Source: Ignavibacteriota bacterium
GTDB taxonomy: Bacteria > Bacteroidota > Ignavibacteria > UBA10030 > UBA6906
Direction: 5' to 3'
NCBI GenBank assembly: GCA_963801355.1
Contig: CAWDEM010000008.1
Location: 1,504,001-1,568,000 of the forward strand
DNA length: 64,000 nt
Positions within the stretch are counted from its first letter, which is position 1, and every line of letters begins with the position of its first letter. A program made the translations under genes and the position numbers. Shown piece by piece: positions 12,089 through 33,563 of this stretch. The notes under the pieces are model-generated. The model ran no database searches and was not told the DNA's origin. It worked only from the letters and a program-made list of their open reading frames with translations.

Positions 12089-14782
12089 TCAGGGATTCCA
12101 CACCCACCTGGGCTTGCAGTCCGACGACGAAACGTAACGCTTTAAACTCGACAACAACGTGGCGGAAAACGGATCAACATCCGCCGTCCGCTGAAGCGGA
12201 AGCGCACACACCAGCAGCTTCCCCTTCCCTACCTTCATCTGCACAACATACCCCGCATGCCTGTGCACCCACCCGATGAAAAGCCCCGCTAACACATCCC
12301 CGAAATGTTCGGGAGGAATGCCGCGAACCGCATACGGCATCTCCATTCCCGCGGACTCAAATCCGAATCGACGGTCCGGACAAACACCACGGAATGGCCC
12401 CCTGTCGTTGCGTACCCAGCTCAACACCGACGCCCAATTCCCTTCGTACCCCCCCGTGTCCCGGTCGACTGCGATCAATGGAAAACCCGCAGGGAACACG
12501 GTAACGCTGTCCATCAACAACAACACATCCCCTCCTTGTTGCAGCGCAGCGACAGAACTCGAGTCCAATGCCGAGGTGACTTTGACCGCCGGGGTTCCCT
12601 CTTTTGCAGCTTCACGCGAAAACACTGCAAGATCCAGGTGATTTGTCGCCAACTCCGTACCAGCACTCGAGACCATCCGGAAGTTGATGTTGAGTTTCCC
12701 GGATGACTTTGCCCCCGCCGGGGGAAGCTGCATCGTGGGAAAGACCGTGACCGTGCCCGGTGGAACCTGACCGAACAAGATGCTCCCTGAATCCCCCCGC
12801 GATGTCCGCCAGTGAACCGTCACACCCCGCGCGCTCTCATCGGAATAACGGGAACACCGAACATCAATCGACGGCTCTTCATCATTCCACCAGGCGAACC
12901 TGGCGGGCCGCGCAACAATGACGTCCTGCTGCTGTATCGCCGGCAACACCTTGCCGCATTCCTTAAGGTTCCTCCACATGTCCATCAACCCGTTGCACTC
13001 CCAGTTGATGTCAGTGAACTCTGTGATGACATACCCTTCGATCCCCGGTGTGAACCGTAACATCTCAATCTGGTACTTCAGCGCATCCGACTGCGCCCGC
13101 TGGCTGACACCCAGCATCTCTCTGTAACTCCCGAACACGCTCGCGAGGTTGTACTGCGCGAACCGTGCCGCGTACCCTTCGGGGACGACAACTTCCGATT
13201 TTCCCAGACCCCTCCCCATCCACCAGGGCGCCGGATCGGGAACTGCCGGCAATCCCCACGTGCCAAACTCGGACAGCAGAAGAGGCTCTCTCCCAGTGGT
13301 CACCGCATCGCCGTACGGACTGAAGAGCCATGCAGGCCGCGCAGCCATGGCGGTGACGACATCATCAAACTGCTTCCGGCGATCGGGCATTGCGGCATAC
13401 TCGTGATAGTCGTTCAGGTCAGTCTTGAGATGGAAGTTACCCCGGCATGCGCTATTGTCCACGACAAGACGGCCCGTTGCGTACACCTTCATCCTGTCAA
13501 ATGCGCCCCGCAACCATTCCCTCTGCTCTGTCTTCTTTAGATCCACCCCCCAGCTTTCATTGATGATGCTCAGCATGACGAGCGACGGGTGGTTCCAATC
13601 GCGGTCAAGCATCTCCCGTAGCGTTTGCTCGCCGCGTGCGCCCGCTTCAGCAGTGAAGACATCCCAGTTGGGAATCTCGTACCAGACCAGCAGTCCAACT
13701 TCATCCGCAACTTTCAGGTAAAGGGGATCTGGCGCCTTGATATGGCACCGCAGCGTGTTCAGACCGATGCGCTTCGCTTTCAACATTTCGTCGCGCAGAT
13801 ACTCCTCTGAGGGCGTTGTGTAAATGGTGTGCGGATAGAAATCCTGATCCAGAGCACCGATGAGGTAGAACGGCCGCCCATTGAAAAGGATTTTCCCTCC
13901 GTCTGTCGCGATCGAACGGAAACCGAACCGGTCGCGGACGGGCGGGTTTGCATCGAGGTTCGCCTCAATTGTGTAGAGCGCCGGACTCACCGGACTCCAC
14001 AGCACCGGCTGGTTCACTTCGAGGGGGACATGCGCCAGGCTGTCCCTGACCGAAACCCGCGCGCGGGCACGGGCGACCACCTGACCTTTTTCGTCCTGGA
14101 TCTGAACTTCGAGTCGGTTGTGCGCGTCGGCCGCAATGGGTGCGGACAGGTGAAGGTTGACTTCCACTTCTCCGTTGATGTTCGGAGTGACTTCCAGCCG
14201 GGTGATCCTGCGGGGAGGCACTACATCGAGCCGGACGCTCTGCCACAACCCCGAAGTCTGCACGTACCAGGTCTGCTTCCCATGCGGGATGCTCCTGTAC
14301 ACAATCCCCTCCGTGCCTTCTCCTCCCAACACCGGATCCATGACACGGACAATGATTTCATTAGCGCCTGGATGGATGACGGCTCCGATATCGACACTGA
14401 ACGGCGTATACCCTCCCTCGTGTACACCATTGCGAGTTCCGTTTGCAAAGACCTCCGCCCTGTAGTCCACTGCTCCGAATGTCAGAACCGCCGTTTCACC
14501 TCTCCGGATGTGAGGGGCATCGAACGATTTCCTGTACCACCCCACACCCTGGTAGTCACGAAGATCAGGAAACTGAGCCTGCCAGGAACCAGGAACGGAG
14601 ATAGGCCGCCAGAATGCCCTGGCCACCACGGTTTCACTTGTGTACTGCCCACTGCTGTCGGCCGCAAAGAGCCATTCGCCGTCAAGACTCATCATGGTGA
14701 CGCGCGTTGGGGATGCACACAACGGGATTGCGGTGATCAGGAGGAGCGTGACTGAACAGCATATGCGGGGGAGATGGTCCAT
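12089..14782 (-). CDS. Glycoside hydrolase family 2, secreted
   Basis: Signal peptide, SLDGEWLF, LTFGAVDY, HEGGYTPF, RFGFRSI, RDWNHPSLVMLSIINESWG (acid/base), LLLSEFG (nucleophile). Confidence 0.92.
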   Translation of the reverse strand: MDHLPRICCSVTLLLITAIPLCASPTRVTMMSLDGEWLFAADSSGQYTSETVVARAFWRPISVPGSWQAQFPDLRDYQGVGWYRKSFDAPHIRRGETAVLTFGAVDYRAEVFANGTRNGVHEGGYTPFSVDIGAVIHPGANEIIVRVMDPVLGGEGTEGIVYRSIPHGKQTWYVQTSGLWQSVRLDVVPPRRITRLEVTPNINGEVEVNLHLSAPIAADAHNRLEVQIQDEKGQVVARARARVSVRDSLAHVPLEVNQPVLWSPVSPALYTIEANLDANPPVRDRFGFRSIATDGGKILFNGRPFYLIGALDQDFYPHTIYTTPSEEYLRDEMLKAKRIGLNTLRCHIKAPDPLYLKVADEVGLLVWYEIPNWDVFTAEAGARGEQTLREMLDRDWNHPSLVMLSIINESWGVDLKKTEQREWLRGAFDRMKVYATGRLVVDNSACRGNFHLKTDLNDYHEYAAMPDRRKQFDDVVTAMAARPAWLFSPYGDAVTTGREPLLLSEFGTWGLPAVPDPAPWWMGRGLGKSEVVVPEGYAARFAQYNLASVFGSYREMLGVSQRAQSDALKYQIEMLRFTPGIEGYVITEFTDINWECNGLMDMWRNLKECGKVLPAIQQQDVIVARPARFAWWNDEEPSIDVRCSRYSDESARGVTVHWRTSRGDSGSILFGQVPPGTVTVFPTMQLPPAGAKSSGKLNINFRMVSSAGTELATNHLDLAVFSREAAKEGTPAVKVTSALDSSSVAALQQGGDVLLLMDSVTVFPAGFPLIAVDRDTGGYEGNWASVLSWVRNDRGPFRGVCPDRRFGFESAGMEMPYAVRGIPPEHFGDVLAGLFIGWVHRHAGYVVQMKVGKGKLLVCALPLQRTADVDPFSATLLSSLKRYVSSSDCKPRWVWNP

Positions 14783-14848
14783 AGAAATCTCTCAGGAAAG
14801 GTTCCCATAATAACCACAAGTGAGAGCAGTATGTCAAGAGCATAAGCA

Positions 14849-14874
14849 TATCAGTCTACGGTATCAGTTTACGG
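14849..14874. repeat. 13-bp tandem direct repeat between the divergent GH2 and GH27 genes
   Basis: TATCAGTCTACGG followed by TATCAGTTTACGG. Confidence 0.7.
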
Positions 14875-14890
14875 TTGCTGTCTTGGCCCG

Positions 14891-14919
14891 TTGACAATAT
14901 CGATGACATTGCGTACACT
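14891..14919 (+). promoter_or_regulatory. sigma70 promoter for the GH27 gene
   Basis: TTGACA-17 nt-TACACT, 30 nt upstream of ATG 14950. Confidence 0.7.
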
Positions 14920-14949
14920 TTCCCCCACACACCTCCGGAGGCTCCCGCC

Positions 14950-17238
14950 ATGCCGCGTATCCTGTTAACACTCTCGCTGATTCTCCTCACGGAATGCTCA
15001 TTTGCCTCGGACCCCGCATACTACATCCGCAAGGATTCCTGGAATGAAACTATGCGTTTGTCGCGGGAGTCCCTTTTTGCGTACCGGGCATCGCTCCCGG
15101 ACGCCGCCCGGATGTTTCTTTCCTCATGGAAACATGCCGGCCCATTCCATGCAGCTGCGGGATCACCCTTTACTGAGATCTTTCCACCGGAAATATCACC
15201 TGTGCTCGACTCGGCATACGGCGGCATCCGCTGGACTGGACATCCTGAGTGGATAGATGGAAAGGTGACCAGTCTAGGATCAGATACCATGTGCGCACAC
15301 TTTCTCCACCGGATCATCACGGCAGGGCGCGATACTTCTATTGTCTTCTCTCTCGGAAGCGACGATGGAATCCAGGTATGGGTGAACGGACGGAATCTTC
15401 TGTCACACGACGTCAACCGCGGCGCCGAACCCGACCAGGAACGACTTCCCGTACGCCTCCACAAGGGTGCTAACACCCTCCTTGTCAAAATCAGCAATAA
15501 CAACGGGCGGACCGGATTTTTCTTCAATGTCGAAGATTCCGAGAAGCGCATGCTGTGGGAACTCGTGCGAAGGGATTTCCCGGATTCCATCAGTCTGCGG
15601 GAAATGGAGTGGGAAACCGCCGACAGCATCTGGACCGCTGACTGGTCGCCGGGAGACGTGATGCCGCTTTCCATCCGTTACGCGGATCACGCCCTGTGCG
15701 AATCATTCGCGCAGTGCCACGCACTCGGCATCAAAGCCCGCATCGTGCAAAGCCCTTCGGATCTGGCGGAAATCCGGGAAGCATACCTGGTCTTCAAAGA
15801 GGCTGACCTCGTCCAAACGATCCTCACACCGAAACCTCCCGCCACACCGCGGATCAACGGGCCGCGCAGGATCGGGGCACGGCCGGGACACCCCTTCCTG
15901 TTTCTGGTGCCTGTCAGCGGCGAACGACCCCTCACCGTGCGGGCTTCCGGACTCCCACGCGGATTGAAACTCGATCCGCAATCCGGCGTGATCAGCGGAC
16001 AAGTGAACGCACCGGGCACCTACCGCGCCACCGTCACTGCCACAAATGCCCGCGGGCAATCAACGGGGTCTATTATGATTGTGATCGGCCCGGCGATTGC
16101 ACTCACTCCACCACTGGGTTGGAACAGCTGGAACTGCTTCGCCGAGGCCGTGGACGACCAACGCGTGCGCAGCGCAGCAGGCGCCATGATCGCCACCGGA
16201 CTCAGCCAACACGGCTGGTCGTATATCAACATTGATGACTGCTGGGAGATCAGACCCGGAAGCACCGACCCCATGCTGAGCGGCGTGCCACGTGATGCGA
16301 ACGGCAGGATCAACACCAACCGGAAATTCCCCGACATGAATGGGCTCAGCGCCTACATCCATGAGAAGGGGCTGAAGATGGGGATCTATTCTTCGCCCGG
16401 CCCACTGACATGTGCAGGCTATACAGGAAGCTACAACCACGAGGCTGATGACGCCCGTCAATACGCATCATGGGGAATTGACTACCTGAAATACGACTGG
16501 TGCTCGTACGGGCAGATCGCAAAGGACCAGAGCCTTTCCGAACTGAAAAAGCCGTATGAACTCATGCGCACGGCGCTCGACGGAGTGCCGCGCGATATTC
16601 TGTATTCCCTCTGCCAGTACGGCATGGGCAACGTCTGGGAATGGGGAGCAACGGTGGGGGGCAATTGCTGGCGCACTACCGGAGATATCACGGATACCTG
16701 GGAAAGCATGTCGGAGATCGGCTTCTCCCAGGCCGGACACGAACCATACGCCGGACCCGGCCATTGGAACGATCCGGATATGCTCGTCGTCGGCAAGGTT
16801 GGATGGGGGCCGTCACTGCATCCGACACGCCTGACACCGAACGAACAATACACTCATATCAGCCTCTGGTGTCTTCTCGCCGCTCCGCTGCTGATCGGCT
16901 GCGACATGACCCAGTTGGATGACTTCACTCTCGGACTGCTCACGAATGACGAAGTGCTCGCCGTGAATCAGGACCCGCTCGGGACGCAGGCACGGCGGAT
17001 CTCAAAAGACGGCGATCTGGAAGTATGGGCAAAGAAGATGGAAGACGGATCCCACGCGGTCGGACTGTTCAACAGGGGCCGGTGGATAAAGGAAGCCACT
17101 CTCCTGTGGAAGGATCTGGGCTTGAAGGGTGATCGCAAGGTGCGGGATCTCTGGCGACAGAAGGACCTCGGCACATTCAACGGCCGGTTTTCTGCTGAAG
17201 TGCCAAGACATGGAGTGGTGCTGGTCAGAGTTAAGTGA
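14950..17238 (+). CDS. GH27 alpha-galactosidase-like enzyme with N-terminal PA14-like and Ig-like (He_PIG) domains
   Basis: ALTPPLGWNSWN, YINIDDCW, DYLKYDWC, WRTTGDI, HWNDPDML. Also GSDDGIQVWVNG (PA14-like) and GLPRGLKLDPQSGVISG (He_PIG). Confidence 0.93.
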   Translation: MPRILLTLSLILLTECSFASDPAYYIRKDSWNETMRLSRESLFAYRASLPDAARMFLSSWKHAGPFHAAAGSPFTEIFPPEISPVLDSAYGGIRWTGHPEWIDGKVTSLGSDTMCAHFLHRIITAGRDTSIVFSLGSDDGIQVWVNGRNLLSHDVNRGAEPDQERLPVRLHKGANTLLVKISNNNGRTGFFFNVEDSEKRMLWELVRRDFPDSISLREMEWETADSIWTADWSPGDVMPLSIRYADHALCESFAQCHALGIKARIVQSPSDLAEIREAYLVFKEADLVQTILTPKPPATPRINGPRRIGARPGHPFLFLVPVSGERPLTVRASGLPRGLKLDPQSGVISGQVNAPGTYRATVTATNARGQSTGSIMIVIGPAIALTPPLGWNSWNCFAEAVDDQRVRSAAGAMIATGLSQHGWSYINIDDCWEIRPGSTDPMLSGVPRDANGRINTNRKFPDMNGLSAYIHEKGLKMGIYSSPGPLTCAGYTGSYNHEADDARQYASWGIDYLKYDWCSYGQIAKDQSLSELKKPYELMRTALDGVPRDILYSLCQYGMGNVWEWGATVGGNCWRTTGDITDTWESMSEIGFSQAGHEPYAGPGHWNDPDMLVVGKVGWGPSLHPTRLTPNEQYTHISLWCLLAAPLLIGCDMTQLDDFTLGLLTNDEVLAVNQDPLGTQARRISKDGDLEVWAKKMEDGSHAVGLFNRGRWIKEATLLWKDLGLKGDRKVRDLWRQKDLGTFNGRFSAEVPRHGVVLVRVK

Positions 17239-17274: not shown

Positions 17275-18324
17275 CTACTCCACCTTGAAGCATCTCCTGT
17301 ACAGTTCCTCGCCTCCTTCGGCCACGACATCAATCACCGGTGTGGAGAGTGCATTCGCCAGCGCAGACCGGCCAAAGGCCGCATCAAGATATGCCGGACG
17401 GTACGTCGTGCCATCGAATGCAGGATAATACGGATTGAATGTCACTGCAGCCAGTTCGGACCGGTGACGGTAGCATATCCGGACGGAGAGTTCCTCCAGC
17501 ATTTCGAGCAGGCCGCCAACCCGCACAGGTTCCCCCGCGAGCAAAAGACGGAATGGATTGTCAAACACGAGGGCAATCCCCCTCGCCTCCGCGTGTCGCA
17601 ACCGGTCGCAGAGCGCCGCCAGACCGTCGGCCGTCACCATCCCCGGCAGCACAATCCCGGCCAGCCCCTCCGGCAGCAGTCTCAGGGACCGGAGAATGTC
17701 TTCCGCGCTATGGAAATCACTCGACGCACACTGTACCTGCACATCCCTGGCCACAAGCCGGATTCCCGACACCTGCGCGTAGTCTTCGTCCGACAATCCG
17801 AACCGGAAGATCCGCTCTATCGCTGAAGTCTCTTCTACAAGCTGGCCGATGTTCGTCGAACGGGCGCCTCCGGTCGCAAACACCACGCGATCTGCAACCG
17901 ACATGGGCGCAATCCGGTTCAGTGACCCGTCAACCAGTAGTTCGGATGCTCCGAGTGACTCCATCTGCCGGGCCACCCTGGCGAGGTCGGCCGTCTTGTT
18001 CGGACCGGCGACAACAACAAGTCCCCCTTTCTCAACAACCGTAATGACTACTTCCCCCAATGCGGTGAACGTGGAGGAGTGCTGCAGTACACGCAATCGC
18101 GCGGTGGAGACCGACAGGCATTGCTCGGAGGTCGTGACAATCATGCCGGGTTTCACAATGATGCGCGGCTTCGGGAGCAGAGTGACGTTGTCACGTTCCT
18201 CTCCGTCATAGCCGATGCCGGTGACGCCCGGCAAGTGCCCCCTGGCATACGCTGTCTGGATCAGCGTGCCGAGTGTTGTTGTCTTTCCGGTATTCTTTGC
18301 AGTTCCGGCAACCCCGATGATCAT
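17275..18324 (-). CDS. KamB-like P-loop protein (homolog of the lysine 5,6-aminomutase reactivase subunit)
   Basis: GTAKNTGKTTTL, TGIGYDGEERD...PKPRIIV.PGMIVTT, TALGEV, LVDGSLNR and NPY motifs resemble clostridial KamB. Confidence 0.7.
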   Translation of the reverse strand: MIIGVAGTAKNTGKTTTLGTLIQTAYARGHLPGVTGIGYDGEERDNVTLLPKPRIIVKPGMIVTTSEQCLSVSTARLRVLQHSSTFTALGEVVITVVEKGGLVVVAGPNKTADLARVARQMESLGASELLVDGSLNRIAPMSVADRVVFATGGARSTNIGQLVEETSAIERIFRFGLSDEDYAQVSGIRLVARDVQVQCASSDFHSAEDILRSLRLLPEGLAGIVLPGMVTADGLAALCDRLRHAEARGIALVFDNPFRLLLAGEPVRVGGLLEMLEELSVRICYRHRSELAAVTFNPYYPAFDGTTYRPAYLDAAFGRSALANALSTPVIDVVAEGGEELYRRCFKVE

Positions 18325-18327
18325 GGC

Positions 18328-20131
18328 TCAGGCAACCGTCCCTTTACCGAAGGTCCCGGGATACGCGCCATCCTCCCGGTCGCCCAGGAGCCCTGCCGAG
18401 ATGGCGGCAGGAAGATCCGGCGCAGATTTTACGCGGTCCAGGACTTCGGCGATCTTCGCGTGCATATCCGCCGTCATCGAGTCAGCTGCGGCGGTTGGCG
18501 CAAAACCCGCTTCACCCATGAAGCGCGCGGCTTCGTGAATGCCCTGTAGGCTGTCGATACGCGAAGCGATGCAGATCGGACCGCGGGAATACGCTTCGTC
18601 AGTCGACGCCACAGTCATCGCATCCACCTTGAGCGCAGTGCCGAGGGCCGCATGGAAGGATGTTGCCGCCGCGGATTGCACACGATCTTCGGTCTGTGTC
18701 ATGAATGCGATCGGCTCGCCGGGCCAGATGGGACAGTCGACGATGGCCCGCAGCGCACGAATCTTCGCCGCGTTGTAGTCCACAAAGGTCTGACGCATCA
18801 GTCCGTTGATGACGATGTGCGGACCATAACAGAAGAGAGGTTTGAGTATGCCACGCGCACCGAGACGCTTTCCCAAGTGCACGTTGATCAGAAGCCCGGC
18901 AAGAGTCTTCCACGCGGGAACGCCGCTCAGCTCATCGTTTCCCGGTATATCGAATGGCATGTTGAACCGGGCCGCGAGCCGGATGGCTTCCACCCCGTCA
19001 ACCGCCAGCCGCGCCGGATCCGTGCCGGCTCCAAGCGATCCGTACACGAGGTCAATCTTGGTCATATCCGCACCGCCATGCGCAGCCAGGACCACCGTCT
19101 CCGGCGTGTTCAGCCCTCTGTGCGCTCGAACCGTGAGCAGCGTCGAGGGATCCAGGAGTTCGCGCATCAGCCGTATATTCTCAACGGACGTGACGGTGCC
19201 GTCGTTCTGATGCGTGAGCGCGCCCTCCAGCAATCCTTCATATCGTGCCTCCCACGAAGGATTGATGAGCAGGAATCCATCCACACCCCACCGTTCGCAC
19301 ACTTTGGCGTGGATGAGGTCCATGACCGGACAGCCGGAACCGAGGAATTTGAAAATCAACGGCCGCTCGCCCGAATGACGCAGTGTCACCGGCCGGAACG
19401 CACTGCGCTCCTTCAACATCTCCCGGAGCGCCTGGAGTTCTTCCCGGGATACATTCCTCACCCCCTTGGGCATGACATTCCGCCGGAATGCATCAACGAT
19501 CACGCTGTCTGACAACGACAGGTATTCATCGAGCAAGGCCGCCTTCCTGGATCCGGATGCATCCGAAAACATTTCTCCGCGCAACCGCGCGCGCTTGACG
19601 CCGGGGCTGGATTTCCCTTCTGACCAGCGCAACAACTTCTCCACAATCTCATCCAGGGCACTCTCGATCCGCCGGTCGTGAACGCGGTAGCTGTAGCCCG
19701 CGGTGATATCGGGTTTCTTCTTCTGAACGCCTACGACTTGATCCTGCGCGGTCTTTCCCTTCGATGAATGCAACGATATCTTCGATGCGGGAGTGCTCGT
19801 CAAATCCGCGATCGAAACCAAGCTCGGCGGCAAGTTCGGAAGTAATAGCTTTGCCACCCAGAATCACGCGTGAACGCTCGCGCACGCCTGCGGCATCCAG
19901 AAGATCCACAAACCGTCCCAGAAGCTCCGCCACTCCGTACCCGAGAGTCCGGCTGACCAGTATGTCATCATACGTACCGGTCGCGGCACGCCGGACGATC
20001 TCTTCCATCGGCAGATCGGGTGAGAGCAGCTCGGTATCGAAGCCGCGGGTGGCAAGGGCGTTCCGAATGATCTTGATGCCCACATCATGCACCGGATCGA
20101 GTGGCACGCAGAGGATCCGCTTCTTGTTCAT
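18328..20131 (-). pseudogene. Cobalamin-dependent mutase-like protein (N-terminal B12-binding domain + TIM barrel), split by a 1-nt frameshift near 19755 (real lesion or sequencing error)
   Basis: ORF 20131-19649 carries DPVHDVG, LVSRTLG, ILGG and LGFDRGF (B12 domain). ORF 19857-18328 continues in the +1 frame from about GAAGGGAAAGACC. The 1804-nt span minus one base gives a 600-aa ORF. Confidence 0.75.
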
Positions 20132-20385
20132 GCCAGTTGGTCCTTCTCTCCCGGTCCCATAAGCCAGTGATAGGGATCGCCTGGCCTGTGAATGTACTTC
20201 CGCAGTCTCACCCGGACCCCGTAGCCGTCGAATTCACAGAACATGATATCGACTTCTCCGAGGCCCAGTTCGTGCCCAAGGCGGAGCGCGAGGTCTTTAC
20301 CCTCGCGCTCGCTCCCGCAGACAAGGTAGGTCTCGATGTCGAGACCGTCCATTACCGCATCAATGGCTTTCATCGTCTGACTCAT
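20128..20385 (-). CDS. Small hypothetical protein (85 aa), coupled to the mutase-like gene
   Basis: ATGA overlap with the downstream gene and operon position. Confidence 0.7.
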   Translation of the reverse strand: MSQTMKAIDAVMDGLDIETYLVCGSEREGKDLALRLGHELGLGEVDIMFCEFDGYGVRVRLRKYIHRPGDPYHWLMGPGEKDQLA

Positions 20386-20440
20386 ATGTACATGGGAGAT
20401 AATTCCGGCCCTGCGGGCCGAACAATCACCGGGTGCCTGT

Positions 20441-21907
20441 CTATTCGAACATGCCGGATTCGTTGCAGACGATTTCGATCAACATGACCAGCGCCCGAAC
20501 GATCATCCGGGCACGCTCGGGAATCAGCTGACCATGCTCATCCGTCGTACCCAACCCGGGCGAGATGAAGATGTTCGCGTCGTATGCGATGGTCGGAATG
20601 ATCCCCATCTGGCTCATGCCATCCTGGAAGATGTTTGTCCCGGAATACATGTCTTCGATGGAGAAGATGGGAATGCCGAGCTTGCCGTCTTTCCAGCTGT
20701 CTTCATAGTTCACCTCGACCGCACCGGAGTTGTAGCTCTTGGCGATCTTAAAGAACGGACGGATGCGTGAGTCGATTTTCGCGAATTCTGCGACTACGAT
20801 GTCGTGCAGTTCATCAATGGGCTTCGTCATGACTTCCGGCTTGTCACGGAGCACTTTGAGGGCCGCCACCTGACCGGAGAGGGCCTCCTTGCCTGGATCC
20901 ATGGTAACGTACGCAGCTTTACCGTACGACGTCGTCGTGCCAAACCGGGCGCCGTGGTAGCCGAGAGCACGGCGGATCGGCACCATAACTTCTTCCCTGC
21001 CGATGATCAATGCACTGGTCGGTGAGCCGCTGGCCTTGTCCATGCTGAAGATCATGATATCTGCGCCGATCTTCTTGATGCTGTTGCCGATGATCGGAAT
21101 GCCCCACGCGTTGTCGATGATGTACGGAACATCATAGGACCGGGCGATTTCGGCGATCCCCTTCTGCAGCAGCGGCGTGCCATCGGCGTCCTTCGTGCCG
21201 TAGCCGTACCCAGGAGTATCATAACCAAGCGAGGCAAATCCGCCCAGGAGCGTTTCATGCTGCTTTGCCGCGGTCCGGATTGCTGCAATCGAAGCCTTGG
21301 CATCGACGTTCTTCATCAACGGAACGGGATGGTATTTGATGCCCTGGACAGGATAGGAGGCACCCGGAAGGGGCACAAACACCGTATCGAGATTGTGCGC
21401 GCGCTTACCGTAGAATCCCAACTCGCCGGCCGTACTGCCGCGATCAGCGAGAATATCCTTGTATTTGGGGGGGTACGGACGCCCATAGCCGCCCTGATGA
21501 TGGATGTGACGCTCCCAGGGAGCGATGTACCGTGTGCGGTAGTTGTCGCCACGCCCCTGGAACGGGGGAGACACGAGGCAGTCAAAACTCACCCAGAGGC
21601 CGCCTTCACAGGTATTAACCGGCGCGGCATCATAGTCGTCGCCATAAGCGCCCTTGACGATCTCGCGGATCTGATCGACATATACGGTGAGCGAAACGAC
21701 CTTGCGCCCTTCGACCGCCATCGCTTTTTCGATATCTTCACGCAACGGAGAGGGACATCCGGAGATGGCGCCGGTGAGTCCGATTGCGCCTTTCAATTCT
21801 GCCGGCATCTTGAGCGTCTCCGCAGCCTTCTTTGCCTCCGCATAAATCTTCGGCAGGTTTGCCTGAAGCCGCTTGTACATCTGGAATTTGAACGACGGTC
21901 GTGCCAT
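20441..21907 (-). CDS. PLP-dependent fold-type I enzyme (SelA/DgaE-like)
   Basis: YIIDNAWG (Asp contacting PLP) and IFSMDKASGSPTSALIIGR (Schiff-base Lys; compare SelA FSGDKLLGGPQAG). Confidence 0.8.
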   Translation of the reverse strand: MARPSFKFQMYKRLQANLPKIYAEAKKAAETLKMPAELKGAIGLTGAISGCPSPLREDIEKAMAVEGRKVVSLTVYVDQIREIVKGAYGDDYDAAPVNTCEGGLWVSFDCLVSPPFQGRGDNYRTRYIAPWERHIHHQGGYGRPYPPKYKDILADRGSTAGELGFYGKRAHNLDTVFVPLPGASYPVQGIKYHPVPLMKNVDAKASIAAIRTAAKQHETLLGGFASLGYDTPGYGYGTKDADGTPLLQKGIAEIARSYDVPYIIDNAWGIPIIGNSIKKIGADIMIFSMDKASGSPTSALIIGREEVMVPIRRALGYHGARFGTTTSYGKAAYVTMDPGKEALSGQVAALKVLRDKPEVMTKPIDELHDIVVAEFAKIDSRIRPFFKIAKSYNSGAVEVNYEDSWKDGKLGIPIFSIEDMYSGTNIFQDGMSQMGIIPTIAYDANIFISPGLGTTDEHGQLIPERARMIVRALVMLIEIVCNESGMFE

Positions 21908-21931
21908 TGAATGCATCCTTTCTGAAGTATG

Positions 21932-22369
21932 TTACGATTGAAAGCCGCGAATGAGGACGGACGTCCCCGGCCGGAGGCCGAGGCCTTCCCCGGTGACCCG
22001 TCCTGCTGTCTTGAGAATTATGTTCTGATGATTCGGTATGTGCGTGTCGTCATATCCGGCGATCGTCCCGATCGGCTTGCCATCCACTTCCACTTCATCG
22101 CCGACGAGCAGAATACCGCCAGTGGTCAGTTCGACGAATGCCACGTAGCCGATTCGGTCCACGGTCGCGCCCGGCACGGCGTTGGACTCGTCGGTGCTGA
22201 TGAATTCGACGATGGTGCCGGCCGGAAATGCCCGTGAGATGGGGGCTATCAGATGGAGCGCACGCGATTCCAGCATCCCGCGTAACACCGTCACCACCCT
22301 GCCACTCACGTCCGCCTTGGCGGCAAAGAATGTGCGATTGGTCATCTTCTGCTCATAGGGGTCGCCCAT
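21932..22369 (-). CDS. DUF6917-like small beta protein
   Basis: PGATVDRIGYVAFVE...GDEV...IGTIAGYDDTHIPNHQNI pattern. Confidence 0.7.
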   Translation of the reverse strand: MGDPYEQKMTNRTFFAAKADVSGRVVTVLRGMLESRALHLIAPISRAFPAGTIVEFISTDESNAVPGATVDRIGYVAFVELTTGGILLVGDEVEVDGKPIGTIAGYDDTHIPNHQNIILKTAGRVTGEGLGLRPGTSVLIRGFQS

Positions 22370-22376
22370 GGTCGCC

Positions 22377-23306
22377 TCACACAAGTTTTGTGACAAACGA
22401 ATCCACATCGCCATGCAGGAAATCCACGACGGGCAGCTCGATCATGGTATAGCAGCCGGGCTTCTGTCTCATCGCGGCACGGGCCGCGGAGACCATCACC
22501 TGCGCGGTCAGTGCGGGATTGTTGACCTTGAGCTGAAAGCGCATGGACTGGTTATGGGTGATGCCGGAGACACCGTTCCGCTCCAGCAGCACGCCGTGGC
22601 CCGTGTCCATCAACGAGGCGACGTCATCCACCTCGTAGACGTACGTCCGGTCTTTCACGAAGTACGGATCTGTCTTGATGGCGTGTTCGACTTCTTCGAA
22701 CTTTGCGCCGGATTCCAGCTGGACATAGACCATCCGGCGGTGAACACCCATTCCTGCCGGCACGGTGAGGGAGATGGCATCGTGCACTCCCTTGATGGCC
22801 CGCACGGCAACCGAGTGCCCCATGGAAAGTCCGGGTCCGTAATTCGTGTATGTGATCCCCCGCGGCGCCATGACCTGGAACCACGCCCGCATGACCGAGT
22901 CAACCCCGGGATCCCAGCCGGCGGAAAGAATCGACACCGTGTTGTGTTCACGGGCAACCTTGTCGAGTTGCTTGCGCAGTGTGGGGATATCATGATGGAT
23001 GTCAAAGCTGTCGACGGTGCGAACGCCTCGCTTCAGAATGGGTTCCACTGCCTTGACCACCGCTCGTGATGGACAGCTGACGATTGCCACGTCGATGGCG
23101 CCGAGGTCTTCGATCTCGGATGCGATCTTGACGTTCTGCATGCCGATCGGGTCACGCTCGGTCAAACGGTCCTGCTTCGTGATGAACGCCGGCACTTCGA
23201 CGACGCCGACCAGCTTCATATCCGGCTCGACGAGGATGGATTCGACTGCACAACGTCCGACATTGCCGTATCCGACGACAGCGACTTTGATGCGGGGTGT
23301 GGCCAT
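22377..23306 (-). CDS. ddh: meso-diaminopimelate D-dehydrogenase family protein
   Basis: GYGNVG, TVDSFDIH, AGWDPG.DS, GPGLSMGHS, HGVLLER and NPALTAQ motifs. Confidence 0.88.
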   Translation of the reverse strand: MATPRIKVAVVGYGNVGRCAVESILVEPDMKLVGVVEVPAFITKQDRLTERDPIGMQNVKIASEIEDLGAIDVAIVSCPSRAVVKAVEPILKRGVRTVDSFDIHHDIPTLRKQLDKVAREHNTVSILSAGWDPGVDSVMRAWFQVMAPRGITYTNYGPGLSMGHSVAVRAIKGVHDAISLTVPAGMGVHRRMVYVQLESGAKFEEVEHAIKTDPYFVKDRTYVYEVDDVASLMDTGHGVLLERNGVSGITHNQSMRFQLKVNNPALTAQVMVSAARAAMRQKPGCYTMIELPVVDFLHGDVDSFVTKLV

Positions 23307-23344
23307 GACTGCTCCTGAGATAGTTCTGTTCCCTGAAGGACAGA

Positions 23345-24061
23345 TTACGTCTGTGAAGCTTTTTGTTGTTCGATGAACGCACACAGCGCAGCGCGGGCGG
23401 CATCGCCGTGCTCACGCACAAGCCGCTCCGCCGCATCGCCATCTCTTCGTGCGAGGGCCTCCAGAATGCCGGCATGCTCGCTGAGAGAGGCGGAGAGATG
23501 GGAGAGCACAGACAGATAGATGTAGTTGTAGCGCAGGGCCTGACTGCGCAAGACACGAATGTATTGAATGAGTTTTTCGTTGCGTGAAGCGTTGCTGACC
23601 GCTGCATGGAACTCTGCGTTCAGCTGGAGGATGCGGCGGTGATCGCGGGACCGGGCAGCGGCAAGACGCGTCATGCGCTCATGAATTTCCCGCAAAGCAT
23701 CCAGTTCGGCTTCGGTGATCTTTTCACTTGCCAGACGGGCCGCGAGCGACTCCAGCACGCCCTTGACCTGGTAGGTTTCCACGGCATCGTCCCGGGAGAG
23801 CTCACTCACCACGGCTCCGCGACGCGGGGTGACGTTTACAAACCCTTCGGAGTCAAGCTGCAAGAGCGCTTCACGGAGCGGAGTCCGGCTCACACCCAGC
23901 CGCGCGGCCAAATCGGGCTCGGCGAGTCTCTCTCCCGGACGGATCTTGCCGTCGATAATAGACGCCCGCACCATCTCCGCAATACGATCGCGCAGGGGCT
24001 TCACTTCCTCCAGATGCACATCCGCGAGGCTAACATCCTCCGTGCGCGCGGCGCGTGCCAT
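23345..24061 (-). CDS. GntR-family regulator (FadR/VanR type, FCD domain)
   Basis: PGERLAEPDLAARLGVSRTPLREAL HTH, plus NAEFH and EHAGILEAL FCD motifs. Confidence 0.95.
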   Translation of the reverse strand: MARAARTEDVSLADVHLEEVKPLRDRIAEMVRASIIDGKIRPGERLAEPDLAARLGVSRTPLREALLQLDSEGFVNVTPRRGAVVSELSRDDAVETYQVKGVLESLAARLASEKITEAELDALREIHERMTRLAAARSRDHRRILQLNAEFHAAVSNASRNEKLIQYIRVLRSQALRYNYIYLSVLSHLSASLSEHAGILEALARRDGDAAERLVREHGDAARAALCAFIEQQKASQT

Positions 24062-24075
24062 ACTCTGTTTCCTTT

Positions 24076-24095
24076 GTATATTGTATACAATATAC
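24076..24095. promoter_or_regulatory. GntR operator (perfect 20-bp palindrome)
   Basis: GTATATTGTATACAATATAC directly upstream of the gntR ribosome-binding site. The TTGTATACAA core fits GntR/FadR-type operators. Confidence 0.8.
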
Positions 24096-24189: not shown

Positions 24190-24344
24190 GATTCATCCAG
24201 AGTGGTGGAGGGACAGACCCTGCGAAGCCACAGCAACCGGTTCCGACAGCCCCCAAAGGTGTGATGCAGATGGGCGGCGGAATGCAGGTGCTAACTTCTG
24301 TTCCCGCCCCGGCCCGTGAATGGGCGGCGGGATGAAGATGAATC
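24190..24344 (+). ncRNA. SAM-I riboswitch
   Basis: P1 GATTCATC/GATGAATC; conserved ATCCAGAG, GAGGGAC, GAAGCC, GCAACC, GGTGCTAA and AAGATG elements. Upstream of metY. Confidence 0.93.
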
Positions 24345-24368: not shown

Positions 24369-26891
<2,523 letters not shown>

Positions 26892-30295: not shown

Positions 30296-31444
30296 TCAAA
30301 CCGTCCAGACTCCGGGGATCACCGTGCCACAGTAACTGCACTTGCCATTCTTCATATGGTTCACGTGAATCGCGTACCCCCGTCGTTCGACGATCATCTT
30401 CTTGCAGCGATGACAGTAGGTATGCTCGGCATCGTGACCCGGAACGTTCCCGACATAGACGTACTTCATTCCGGCGCTCACAGCCGCCGCATGGGCGTCC
30501 TCAAGCCGTTTCACCGGCGTCGGGGCCAGCTGGTTGAGCTTGTACATCGGTACAAAGCGGCTGAAATGGAGCGGCACATCATCAAGTCCGTTCTTGCACA
30601 ACCAGTCGCACATCCGCCGGATCATATCCAGATCATCACTCCATCCCGGGATCACCAGGTTTGTGATCTCCAGCCAGACATGCATCTCATGAAACACCCG
30701 GAGTGTCCGGAGCACAGGGGCGAGTTTTCCGGCGTTCAGCCGCGAGTAGATGTTCTCGTCGAAGCTCTTCAGGTCGATATTCGCAGCATCGATCACCCGG
30801 CAGAGTTTTCGCAGCGGTTCCTCTTCTATGTAGCCGTTGGACTTCCAGACATTCCGAATCCCTTCCCGGCGGGCGATCTCCGCCGTGTCGTACGCATATT
30901 CGTAGAACGTGGTCGGCTCGGAGTACGTGTACGCGATCGATGCGCAACCGGTCCGGCGGCATTCATCCACCACCGCGCGCGGCATCAAATCCTGATTCTC
31001 GGTTTCCTTCGGACTCACCTGAGAGATTTGCCAGTTCTGACAATTCAGGCAGGCCAGATTGCATCCCGCAGCAGCGATGGAAAATGCCCGCGTCCCGGGA
31101 AGGAAGTGCAGCAGGGGTTTCTTCTCAATCGGGTCAACATGAACAGCGCAGGGGTTGCCATAGGCAATGGAGTACAGCTTTCCCCCGACGTTCACCCGGT
31201 TGCGGCAGAGTCCGGCTCCACCGACGGGGATGGTGCAATCGTTCGGGCATTTCAGGCAATGGATGGCATCTCCCGCTTGCTCCACGAAAAGCGCTTCCTT
31301 GCTCCATTTCCAGAGCTCGTCGCCGGCGGGAGCCCCGTTCAGCCACCCGGAGATCTCCGCATGCAGGTGTGCCGGCATCGGCCTCGTAAACACTGTATGC
31401 ATTGCACCAAATGCACAACACTGAAGGAATTCACGCTTTTTCAT
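30296..31444 (-). CDS. amrS: AmmeMemoRadiSam system radical SAM enzyme with Tat-like leader
   Basis: CNLACLNCQNWQISQ, DPIEKKPL.HF.PG, AYTYSEP, terminal Cys clusters. N-terminus MKKREFLQ. Confidence 0.92.
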   Translation of the reverse strand: MKKREFLQCCAFGAMHTVFTRPMPAHLHAEISGWLNGAPAGDELWKWSKEALFVEQAGDAIHCLKCPNDCTIPVGGAGLCRNRVNVGGKLYSIAYGNPCAVHVDPIEKKPLLHFLPGTRAFSIAAAGCNLACLNCQNWQISQVSPKETENQDLMPRAVVDECRRTGCASIAYTYSEPTTFYEYAYDTAEIARREGIRNVWKSNGYIEEEPLRKLCRVIDAANIDLKSFDENIYSRLNAGKLAPVLRTLRVFHEMHVWLEITNLVIPGWSDDLDMIRRMCDWLCKNGLDDVPLHFSRFVPMYKLNQLAPTPVKRLEDAHAAAVSAGMKYVYVGNVPGHDAEHTYCHRCKKMIVERRGYAIHVNHMKNGKCSYCGTVIPGVWTV

Positions 31445-33563
31445 AGCTTCTCCAGACGGGAGATGTCAATGAGATACCCGCACCTGTAATCACTGCGGCC
31501 GCACCAATGTTGGCCACTGCCTGCACCCCCACCAGCGGTAACAAGAACGGACCGACGAGCAGCGCACCTATCGCCGAGCCGAGCAGGTCCGCGCCATAGA
31601 GCCGTGACCCATTGCCGACAGGATCCTGCAACCTCACCCGCGATGTGAGTGTGAAGACGGCACCCGCACAGAGCGATCCAAACGTCAGACACACCACAAG
31701 ACCCGCCACACCTATGATGAGATCCTCTGACGTCGCGGACTGCAGGAAGGCGGAGGCCAGAAGAGTAACGGCCAGGCCGCACTGCATGACCGCATACCGG
31801 CGGGAGGTCAGTTTCAGATACCCCCCGGCAAATGCACCGATTCCCATGCCCGCCATGTAGAGACCTATGAGCGCACCGCTCATCTTGTAGACATTCCCGA
31901 ACGCGACCTGTACGATCATCAGGGCAATCAGCTCGAGCGTGATGCCGCCGAAGCCGGCGACCACCACCCCGAGCGACTCCCTGTCTGTCCGGACGATGAG
32001 GAAAAGAGCAGCAAGGAATGCTAAAGCTGGGACCCAGCTCTCAACCGCAAAGAAACGGAGCCAGTACCGAATCTGCGCGAGCATCAACACGGGATGGTCG
32101 TCACTATTTACAGGGGTCACCAGTTGCAGTGAACTGTTCAACCGCCGGGCCCTGTCCGCCAGGAGATCGTCCTGAACGTAGTCCGCGTTCGCGTATGTCG
32201 TCGCCACACCAGCGTCGGCGACGGCAGCGGAGACATCCATCCGGAGCGCCGAATCGGACGCAAGATACATATCACGGCCGGCGGGGAGAATGATGACGTT
32301 CCTGAAGGATTCACTGATAGTGTTGCGCAAGGTCGCTCGCACATTCCTTGCATCCGCCCCCGCGTAATCCGCAGACGATGAGAGCGACAGGCACAGCACC
32401 CCTGCAGACGTCAGCCTGTCATGAGCCAGCTGGATCGACTCCCTCGTGTAGAACCGGTTCGATTGGAGTGTCGACGGCTCGGGCGCAACGATGATGACCG
32501 CATCATACATTCCGGCTGCTGCACGAAGGTGCCTGCGGATATCGCCCGAGAGATACTGCACCCGGTGGTCATGCGGAAGCCGGAAGTAGCGTTGCTGCAT
32601 GTCTCTCATCCACGGGTTTTCCTCGATACAGTCCACACGTGTGAGGGGATACTTCAAGACCTCCGGGATGAGGGATGATGGGTTGCCGCCGGCAATGAGC
32701 ACCCTTCCGGACCGTGGACGCTGTGCCAGTGTGAAATGCACCAACTCTTCGGCACTCTGTATGTCACCGTTATAGACCAGAGGGATATTGTTCGCGAAAA
32801 CAGTGTTCTGTCCTCCGAAGCGCGTTGTTGTCAATTCGCCGTACGGCGTCTCTTCGTGGGCGAGGATGGTGTGTCCCGGATAGCGCAGCGCAAACGTCAG
32901 CGCATTCAAGTCGAACGTGTTGTGCGCCAGACCGAGTGCAACAACACCCGCAGGAAGCAGAAGACAAAGGTACCATTCTTTTGTGCGCAGTGCGATGACC
33001 GAGCCCGCGATTCCGGAAACGGCACACAAGTACAGAAGCAGATCCTGCGATGAGAGCAAACCGAATAGCAGGACACCGAACAACGCGCCCCCTGTCAGAC
33101 TCCCGGCCGCCTCCCATGCATAGACACTCCCCGCCGGGTTCATTGTGCCCCGGGAAACCGCTGCACGAACCAACAGGGAAAATGCCGCACCGGAGAAAAG
33201 ACAGACCGGGCTGAGGACGAGTATCGCACCGACAAGGAAGATCCATATCTCCATCATGCTCCCGGGAGGAGCGATCAGCAGGGGGAGAACGCGAAACGCT
33301 ACGAGCGTGAGGGGAGGGAGGACCATGAGAGCGCACAGAACAACCGGCGGGATGAGGGTCATTCGGAGTCCGGGTGTCCATCGCCGCGCAAGCACTGCAC
33401 CGATGCCCGTAAGGGCCAGCCAGTCGAACAGCATGATGCCGATGACGAGCTCGTTCCCGAGAAATGCCGAGAGGATTTCGCGGAGCAACACAACTTGTGT
33501 TCCCGCGGTAATAGCGCCCGCCAGAACAGTTGTGACCCGGACTCCGCTAACCACCTGCTGCAT
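31431..33563 (-). CDS. Membrane protein with a central spermidine-synthase-like SAM-binding domain
   Basis: Hydrophobic N- and C-terminal helix bundles; ETPYG, EELVH, VLIAGG, NRFYT, NSDDHPVL; repeated Y..(E/D)..GS..G motifs. Confidence 0.85.
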   Translation of the reverse strand: MQQVVSGVRVTTVLAGAITAGTQVVLLREILSAFLGNELVIGIMLFDWLALTGIGAVLARRWTPGLRMTLIPPVVLCALMVLPPLTLVAFRVLPLLIAPPGSMMEIWIFLVGAILVLSPVCLFSGAAFSLLVRAAVSRGTMNPAGSVYAWEAAGSLTGGALFGVLLFGLLSSQDLLLYLCAVSGIAGSVIALRTKEWYLCLLLPAGVVALGLAHNTFDLNALTFALRYPGHTILAHEETPYGELTTTRFGGQNTVFANNIPLVYNGDIQSAEELVHFTLAQRPRSGRVLIAGGNPSSLIPEVLKYPLTRVDCIEENPWMRDMQQRYFRLPHDHRVQYLSGDIRRHLRAAAGMYDAVIIVAPEPSTLQSNRFYTRESIQLAHDRLTSAGVLCLSLSSSADYAGADARNVRATLRNTISESFRNVIILPAGRDMYLASDSALRMDVSAAVADAGVATTYANADYVQDDLLADRARRLNSSLQLVTPVNSDDHPVLMLAQIRYWLRFFAVESWVPALAFLAALFLIVRTDRESLGVVVAGFGGITLELIALMIVQVAFGNVYKMSGALIGLYMAGMGIGAFAGGYLKLTSRRYAVMQCGLAVTLLASAFLQSATSEDLIIGVAGLVVCLTFGSLCAGAVFTLTSRVRLQDPVGNGSRLYGADLLGSAIGALLVGPFLLPLVGVQAVANIGAAAVITGAGISLTSPVWRSYEKA

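Follow-up and report, generated by a model that had tools for sequence, protein, structure and literature searches.

What is a dehydrogenase for meso-diaminopimelate (meso-DAP) doing in one operon with a cobalamin-binding "mutase"? The question is raised by a run of seven genes at 17275-24095 of a 64,000-nucleotide stretch of DNA from an Ignavibacteriota bacterium (contig CAWDEM010000008.1 of assembly GCA_963801355.1, positions 1,504,001 to 1,568,000), referred to below as the window. From 5' to 3' these genes encode a GntR/FCD regulator, the dehydrogenase (Ddh), a DUF6917 protein, a pyridoxal phosphate (PLP) enzyme, an 85-aa protein, a B12/TIM-barrel protein of about 600 residues (here called the mutase) and a KamB-like protein. 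Open reading frames (ORFs), Pfam and NCBIfam agree on the layout that an earlier note on this DNA had described: seven minus-strand genes running in one direction, tightly packed, behind a perfect palindrome (Table 1). The answer that we favor, with modest confidence, is that they form an inducible operon for an uncharacterised adenosylcobalamin (AdoCbl)-dependent amino-acid pathway whose substrate is meso-DAP or a close analogue.

The argument begins with the company that these genes keep. A scan of genomes, one per species, returned 68 loci, almost all of them labelled as metagenome-assembled genomes (MAGs) of Ignavibacteriota/Bacteroidota; another three carry a Gemmatimonadota label (Gemmatimonadaceae, Gemmatimonadales, Longimicrobiales), and single loci bear the labels Synechococcus, Patescibacteria and "bacterium". 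Forty-seven of the loci extend 4.4 kb or more beyond the mutase on its upstream side; in this group Ddh, the DUF6917 protein and the 85-aa protein are each encoded in 46, the PLP enzyme in 45 and the GntR regulator in 43; the four loci lacking the regulator are the three Gemmatimonadota loci and one ignavibacterial locus, L050, which is taken up below. On the downstream side, where 54 loci could be counted, the KamB-like gene follows the mutase in 52 by the ORF criterion, and the two misses do have tblastn matches, which were misplaced when the ORFs were extended.

A second clade extends the set beyond these lineages. The PLP enzyme has relatives in Bacillota (the cultured Thermanaerosceptrum fracticalcis and Calderihabitans maritimus, and Peptococcaceae) that are 65-69% identical to it, and a metagenome scan with one of them yielded 80 loci, which were divided by identity of the PLP enzyme to that of the window (at least 74% versus at most 69%). 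Eighteen are of the window type. Ddh is present in 16 of them and GntR in 15 (L148 starts inside Ddh), and the two that lack Ddh are short contigs. The remaining 62, with PLP enzymes at most 69% and barrels at most 50% identical, constitute the second clade. Here the PLP gene is surrounded, in several different orders, by genes for the DUF6917 protein (48 loci), the 85-aa protein (about 41), the mutase (37) and the KamB-like protein (about 28), counts that are lower bounds, many of the contigs being short. A constant gene set in spite of shuffled order is strong evidence that the DUF6917 protein, PLP enzyme, small protein, mutase and KamB-like protein work together, and the expectation that they would be found together in other genomes has been borne out in both clades. 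The second clade also has regular additions of its own: a RidA-family imine/enamine deaminase (35 of the 62 loci), usually encoded directly upstream of the PLP enzyme; a 427-aa flavin adenine dinucleotide (FAD) oxidoreductase (32); an FCD regulator whose helix-turn-helix differs from that of GntR (25); and a protein with 12 transmembrane (TM) segments (14).

Why meso-DAP? The dehydrogenase had been presented as a member of the meso-DAP dehydrogenase family; that description turns out to be too cautious, for an orthodox type II enzyme. Its profile matches the S. thermophilum enzyme (3WB9), the closest solved Ddh, over the whole length (E 1.9e-141), and W121, D122, M152, T171, R181, H227 and N253 of that enzyme are all retained, while F146 is replaced by Tyr. 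These are presumably residues that contact meso-DAP; T171, R181 and H227, which we take to touch its distal L-centre, do not vary in any of the 15 Ddh sequences compared from the cluster. The genome has this single Ddh and also has DapF and LysA, so that Ddh is not needed for biosynthesis; no DapL-type aminotransferase (TIGR03542) was found over the cut-off in the genome. Across 151 genomes of the class the mutase occurs in 11 and Ddh (over its cut-off) in 12, with both in 11, counts that are not independent, the genomes being kin. The twelfth Ddh genome, which is 85% complete with 7% contamination, has no mutase, and the remaining 139 have no Ddh over the cut-off. In this lineage, then, Ddh is tied to the B12 module and not to lysine synthesis in general, and it is principally this co-occurrence that favors meso-DAP, or a compound fitting its site, as an intermediate.

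Is the large protein a mutase at all? Judged by the AlphaFold model of an intact homologue (mean predicted local distance difference test, pLDDT, 76.2), it has the fold of an aminomutase. The comparison with known mutases that the earlier note had called for was made with Foldseek, and ranks KamD first (1xrs_A, E 6.4e-15, TMq 0.53), ahead of ornithine aminomutase (OAM; 3kow_B, 7e-10) and GlmE (1.3e-8). A profile of the barrel alone finds KamD at E 6.4e-5; the B12-domain profile finds KamE at 7.7e-13 and OraE at 1.3e-9. The B12 domain comes first (residues 1-125, Rossmann from residue 5) and the barrel last (about 250-600); no OAM_dimer domain is recognized by Pfam in the mutase, while KamDE/OraE-type proteins in the same comparison (P0193, P0215) have one. 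The B12 domain has an invariant DPVHDVG-x-K motif, whose DPVHDVG part holds in both clades. Tyr263 of KamD, which stacks on PLP, aligns with an invariant Tyr of the mutase; a neighboring GL-x-x-PE segment is shared, and a Gly-rich loop follows the Tyr.

The family to which this protein belongs is sizable and stands apart. Of 8000 candidates scored, more than 1000 fall at E <= 0.001, and the 120 relatives listed are, with few exceptions, single proteins with lengths of 589-614 aa; their public names are "cobalamin-binding", "methylmalonyl-CoA mutase cobalamin-binding subunit" and "hypothetical". When 1.84 billion cluster representatives were searched with the family profile, 305 proteins scored at E <= 0.001, and a single one of them (P0123) is a full-length member; the other strong matches are shorter than about 600 aa and mostly fragments, and not until a KamD-KamE fusion, at E 1.1e-9, does a full-length protein of another kind appear. 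The family is therefore tightly conserved and isolated, and its two clades are about 48% identical. By analogy with its structural relatives the mutase probably performs AdoCbl radical chemistry; its sequence places it outside the two known families of PLP/B12 aminomutase. What is new is a probable AdoCbl isomerase of aminomutase fold with an architecture, a small subunit and a set of partners of its own.

Two of those partners flank the mutase directly. Prediction of a complex between the 85-aa protein and the mutase gives a median ipSAE (interaction prediction score from aligned errors) of 0.81, compared with 0.00 for the best of three controls. (A technical note: the ipSAE mark is reached by 58 of 80 solved complexes and by 2 of 110 mismatched pairs, a calibration that is rough here, the alignments being our own.) At least 82% of the contacts agree between runs, pLDDT of the partner is at least 81, and the predicted contact falls on conserved loops of the barrel (265-273, 306-309, 480-483 and 511-523 in the numbering of the homologue). 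The model thus supports binding of the 85-aa protein to the mutase as a small subunit. The naming of the other partner as KamB-like has held up in part: the window protein scores 193.1 bits over its full length, below the cut-off of 210 for NF052386, while its Walker A motif is invariant in the alignment and the second-clade orthologue in L116, at 246.6 bits, exceeds the cut-off. Profile searches of the PDB gave nothing significant for the 85-aa, DUF6917 and KamB-like proteins. The genome encodes a PduO-type adenosyltransferase that could supply AdoCbl.

The PLP enzyme is strongly conserved within the cluster (83% mean column identity over 15 sequences), and its PLP-lysine segment alone aligns with fold-type-I enzymes. 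The nearest named family is DgaE, D-glucosaminate-6-phosphate ammonia-lyase (TIGR01437), at 28.4 bits for the window protein and 54.8 bits (E 7e-15) for that of L116, with a cut-off of 385.3; compared with DgaE the enzyme is about 120 residues longer and lacks a sugar-acid or phosphotransferase system (PTS) context. With DgaE as its nearest family and RidA as its regular neighbor in the second clade, it is probably an eliminating ammonia-lyase that releases an enamine or imine. The SelA-like character previously ascribed to it stands weakly, shared with DgaE; the companion idea, that of a cleavage enzyme, fares less well, because the protein looks more like an eliminating ammonia-lyase than like an enzyme that cleaves C-C bonds.

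The DUF6917 protein, constant companion of the PLP enzyme, had been singled out for its H-x-P-N-H motif, and rightly so: the motif sits within an invariant block, DDTHxPNHQN, that suggests a metal-binding or catalytic site. It is present as a single copy in the genome, and its model is a small beta-barrel (pLDDT 87.7). No closer assignment of the fold emerged: Foldseek found no match in the PDB at E <= 0.001, and a wide VIA-align comparison gave a best Z of 4.3, to generic small beta-barrels, and 3.8 to PTS IIA-gut, neither of them convincing. Both the DUF6917 and the PLP-enzyme families are also found in other phyla.

The operon's own regulator joins a GntR winged helix to an FCD domain, as in the FadR/FCD subfamily. 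Repressors of the GntR/FCD type usually govern catabolism. The perfect operator reported for it in the earlier note is there: the 20-nt palindrome lies 15 nt upstream of the GntR start, and in 38 of 46 related loci its 12-nt core, allowing up to two mismatches, is found again ahead of the GntR gene, as against none of 46 controls (equal-length stretches from inside the same loci); the exact 10-nt core is found in 20 of the 46. Between 17000 and 24600 no cobalamin riboswitch was detected at E <= 0.01, and a scan for promoters and terminators gave no signal above shuffled sequences.

From gene content and its conservation, the fold of the mutase, its co-occurrence with Ddh and the retained Ddh active site, which are observed, we infer the use of AdoCbl, the type of reaction, the order and direction of the steps and the substrate, as follows: 1) Sitting on the palindrome, the GntR/FCD protein would keep the operon repressed as long as no carboxylate effector is bound. 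2) The favored substrate, meso-DAP or a close analogue, might come, for example, from peptidoglycan. 3) The ~600-aa isomerase, with the 85-aa protein as its predicted small subunit and the KamB-like NTPase as its probable cofactor chaperone or reactivase, would by analogy carry out a radical 1,2-rearrangement of a diamino acid, or of its oxidised or cyclic-imine form, the likeliest such reaction being the migration of an amino group. 4) The DgaE-like PLP enzyme, together with the DUF6917 protein, would then remove an amino group by elimination. 5) Ddh would oxidatively deaminate a D-amino centre with NADP; in the other clade this might fall to the flavoprotein and RidA. (That Ddh and the flavoprotein perform the same step is a guess.)

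The scheme has relatives among known systems, and resembles none of them throughout. KamDE with KamB and KamC offers the same TIM-barrel fold, the Tyr and GL-x-x-PE motifs, the closest B12 domain (KamE) and a KamB-like partner; against this, the mutase is fused in reverse order into one chain, has an unrelated 85-aa subunit and only about 15% identity, and no KamC-type partner is seen in the cluster. The ornithine system OraSE/Ord/OrtAB likewise combines a small subunit, a B12 mutase, an amine dehydrogenase of DapB/Ddh fold and a PLP enzyme with a small partner. Its differences are that OraE has the barrel first, that a true Ddh serves as dehydrogenase here (300.9 bits; the Ord model gives 27.5 against a cut-off of 400), and that the PLP enzyme, unlike OrtB, is of fold type I and DgaE-like, with no CoA-dependent step evident. 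GlmES with methylaspartase provides a precedent for an AdoCbl isomerase followed by elimination of ammonia; here KamD, and not GlmE, is the nearer relative of the barrel, elimination depends on a PLP enzyme, and there is no GlmL/MutL-type partner. The S. thermophilum Ddh, for its part, matches in full-length profile and in substrate-site residues, and differs from the enzyme here in that the latter is tied to a B12 module. The claim that no pathway with this gene set has been characterised also stands as far as the literature searched can say: in that literature, which took in few subscription journals and no supplements, no description of the cluster was found, and nothing on DUF6917 or on a Ddh paired with a cobalamin aminomutase.

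Table 1. Features of the operon in the window. Coordinates are window positions; profile scores are followed by the model's cut-off where one applies.
Feature	Position	Strand	Evidence
20-nt perfect palindrome, TTGTATACAA core, putative GntR/FCD operator	24076..24095		Core recurs in related loci
GntR-family regulator with FCD effector domain	23345..24061	-	PF00392 67.9 bits, PF07729 91.9 bits, both above cut-off
Ddh, type II meso-diaminopimelate D-dehydrogenase	22377..23300	-	TIGR01921 300.9 bits (cut-off 180.6)
DUF6917 protein, small beta-barrel	21932..22357	-	PF21891 141.8 bits (cut-off 27); ORF open to 22414
Fold-type-I PLP enzyme, 491 aa	20441..21916	-	Weak SelA/DgaE/class-V matches; probable eliminating lyase
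85-aa protein, predicted mutase small subunit	20128..20385	-	No Pfam/NCBIfam family; directly upstream of mutase
Mutase, N-terminal B12-binding Rossmann domain, frame A	19754..20131	-	PF02310 37.7 bits; KamE/OraE profile matches
Frame break, one extra base in AAA run, +1 shift	19754..19756	-	Alignment to intact homologues
Mutase, linker helices and KamD-like TIM barrel, frame B	18328..19753	-	Foldseek 1xrs_A E 6.4e-15
KamB-like P-loop NTPase, Walker A GTAKNTGKTT	17275..18324	-	NF052386 193.1 bits (cut-off 210)

Some of the boundaries in Table 1 differ from those of the ORFs as read from the assembly. The Ddh ORF is open up to 23384, with its likely true start at 23300. The B12-binding ORF runs from 19649 to 20131 and the barrel ORF, of 509 aa, from 18328 to 19857; the latter scores 24.0 bits with the KamD-barrel model PF09043, just below the cut-off of 25. 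The genes are closely spaced: the stop of the 85-aa gene overlaps the start of the B12 ORF, and the barrel ends 3 nt ahead of the KamB-like start.

A number of findings weigh against this reading of the operon, and the most serious concern the active site of the mutase. In lysine 5,6-aminomutase, according to a published description (PMC3958899), PLP is held as an imine by Lys144 of the Rossmann domain, with Ser238 at the pyridine N, Tyr263 stacked and Asn299 in further contact, and its phosphate is bound by Arg184, Arg268 and Ser189. Lys144 and, in OraE, Lys629 are the PLP-binding lysines of the known aminomutases (PMC3958899 and PMC4256349). In the mutase family this Rossmann lysine, 11 residues past the His, is absent: no Lys is conserved at +9 to +13 in either clade, and the position of OraE Lys629 is an invariant Ile. 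An invariant Arg stands where KamD has Ser238, and Asn, Ala and Glu occupy the places of Arg184, Arg268 and Asn299, respectively, in an alignment to KamD that is approximate at such low identity. With the PLP lysine and Arg184, Arg268, Ser238 and Asn299 not conserved, an aminomutase mechanism is not secured. What had been proposed, an operon on the logic of the lysine and ornithine fermentations, keeps its KamD-like barrel and its B12 domain and loses the PLP-binding lysine by which those systems are defined. In the B12 motif itself the spacing from Asp to His is longer by one residue than in the canonical base-off/His-on motif, which is DxHxxG.

The other adverse points concern the company of the mutase. 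No Ddh is found in the 62 second-clade loci, apart from a partial, 43%-identical match at the contig edge of L094, and the flavoprotein there is unlike known D-amino-acid dehydrogenases, its best PDB relatives being GidA/MnmG and TrmFO (E 1e-7 to 1e-8). In L050 (9729-12822, Ignavibacteria) the genes for the 85-aa protein, the mutase and the KamB-like protein are present, and the 10 kb to each side contain no gene for Ddh, the DUF6917 protein or the PLP enzyme. In the window's clade neither a transporter nor a downstream carbon-handling enzyme is conserved, and no other neighbor is kept. The PLP enzyme falls far below every NCBIfam cut-off, that of DgaE included. Finally, the frame of the mutase is broken in this assembly, and the operon may be inactive here.

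If the Rossmann "lock" is missing, what might take its place? The barrel has three lysines that are invariant in both clades, K358, K408 and K456 (numbered as in homologue P0004), and the first of them comes five residues ahead of the stacking Tyr. The sole invariant Lys of the B12 domain is five residues past the His, the usual position in methylmalonyl-CoA mutase and in GlmS, and a further likeness to GlmES. It is a long shot that the mutase represents a new class of AdoCbl isomerase without the Rossmann PLP lock, binding PLP through K358 of the barrel or dispensing with PLP, and that the operon is the first described pathway of meso-DAP catabolism. In the PLP-free variant the substrate would be a cyclic imine (tetrahydrodipicolinate) that Ddh makes from meso-DAP, and its own C=N would serve in place of the PLP aldimine during the radical amino shift.

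To our knowledge the AdoCbl-dependent enzymes described so far make up about a dozen kinds, to which a new one is seldom added. The present candidate comes with a fixed set of partners in several phyla (Ignavibacteriota/Bacteroidota, Gemmatimonadota, Bacillota), and because it departs from its relatives at the residue that defines their mechanism, the family can reveal how such a fold functions once the PLP lock is gone. If meso-DAP is indeed the substrate, the pathway would explain how anaerobes of sediment, soil and gut use a major component of bacterial necromass.

How firmly is the substrate fixed? One rival explanation, unlikely and yet a serious contender, keeps the same machinery and gives it another substrate: D-lysine, D-ornithine, 2,4-diaminobutyrate or a beta- or hydroxy-amino acid, with a relaxed Ddh acting on the rearranged product. 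The S. thermophilum enzyme, the closest solved Ddh, is known for relaxed D-amino-acid specificity, and the second clade does without Ddh altogether; yet a Ddh that had been turned to other substrates would have to have kept the presumed L-centre contacts of meso-DAP invariant throughout the cluster. An amino shift would leave a 2,3- or 2,4-disubstituted amino acid, a compound suited to elimination by a DgaE-like lyase with RidA, and the known relatives of the mutase use D-Lys, beta-Lys and D-Orn (PMC3958899); the cluster, on the other hand, contains no racemase.

A different sort of doubt attaches to the locus itself: is the operon alive in this genome? The B12 and barrel ORFs overlap in different frames, and alignment to intact homologues of about 600 aa puts the switch right after "...IEGK". 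The earlier note had joined the two halves into one repaired mutase, and the relatives vindicate it: B12 domain and barrel are in a single ORF in 64 of 66 homologous loci, and an intact query matches the window's genome in two pieces. That the operon is a decaying remnant, its frameshift real and its mutase non-functional, is a minority possibility. The break does stand in the assembled sequence, but it amounts to a single base in a three-base homopolymer, the rest of the gene and all its neighbors are intact, and homologue P0003, 94% identical to the barrel ORF, reads through the junction uninterrupted. A 94%-like contig of public run X4 has one base fewer at 19755, within the AAA of 19754-19756. 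Elsewhere in the same assembly (L079, contig C4, outside the window) the essential gene lysA, at 453.4 bits, contains one in-frame TGA, which may be another consensus error or a real break, and two other MAG loci have broken mutase frames, L056 (9992-11590) and L066 (9992-12833), the latter with its PLP gene split as well; this suggests indel errors of those assemblies. Since the lysA TGA and the broken frames of L056 and L066 fit a pattern of consensus errors, an assembly error at 19754-19756 is more likely than a real pseudogene. A search of public runs for reads of the organism found none, the best run holding 0.19 of the words.

The reading of the operon as catabolic and directed to meso-DAP or an analogue also has to be set against its opposite in direction: salvage or biosynthesis, in which some other compound would be converted by the mutase and PLP enzyme to L-2-amino-6-oxopimelate (tetrahydrodipicolinate), which Ddh would reduce to meso-DAP for cell wall and lysine. 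We regard this as highly improbable. Ddh does normally run in the biosynthetic direction, and the closest relatives have the operon back to back with genes for MetY, MetX, aspartate kinase (AK) and aspartate semialdehyde dehydrogenase (ASD). In the window these divergent genes, beginning with metY (24455-25789), lie downstream of an S-adenosylmethionine (SAM)-I riboswitch on the plus strand (24190-24344; RF00162, 66.6 bits, E 3e-14), which shares its intergenic region with the GntR operator; having their own riboswitch, they are separately controlled. The arrangement is moreover rare among the 68 loci, with ASD in 7, MetY in 6 (a divergent MetY match in L015 left out), MetX in 6 and AK in 4. 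DapF and LysA are already at hand, the great majority of the class manages without Ddh, the flavoprotein, RidA and transporters of the second clade fit oxidation and uptake, and a regulator of the GntR/FCD type speaks for catabolism as well.

The last rival, a fusion of corrinoid methyl carrier and methyltransferase in place of the ~600-aa mutase, deserves next to no credence: its B12 domain does match methyltransferase corrinoid proteins (MtgC 1.2e-8, 1y80 1.1e-6) and its barrel the pterin-binding DHPS barrels in Foldseek, the latter only at about 3e-6, but the matches to KamD, OAM and GlmE are several orders of magnitude stronger, Pfam finds no corrinoid cap (B12-binding_2), the KamB-like partner is conserved and no methyltransferase genes are among the conserved neighbors, all of which agrees with the earlier assignment of the barrel to the mutases.

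Candidate transporters come from the second clade. The 12-TM protein (about 461 aa, no Pfam or NCBIfam family) is encoded inside the clusters, as at L090:7199-8584, and also in L083, L086, L088, L091, L097, L100, L107, L110, L112, L129, L136 and L137; it may be a substrate transporter. In a single subgroup, two loci have Dpp/Opp-type ABC transporter genes next to the cluster: at L093:10450-15543 an SBP_bac_5 binding protein adjoins the FCD regulator, and at L105:18952-20888 there are ATPases with an oligo_HPY domain. This hints at uptake of a peptide or peptide-like compound.

Elsewhere in the window, the downstream flank of the operon (12089-17238) holds, on the minus strand, a GH2 glycosidase and, on the plus strand, an alpha-galactosidase carrying a He_PIG domain, the alpha-galactosidase being a neighbor common to the closest relatives, L002 and L003. 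At 30296-33749, on the minus strand, a radical SAM protein of 382 aa adjoins a 772-aa protein with a spermine/spermidine synthase domain.

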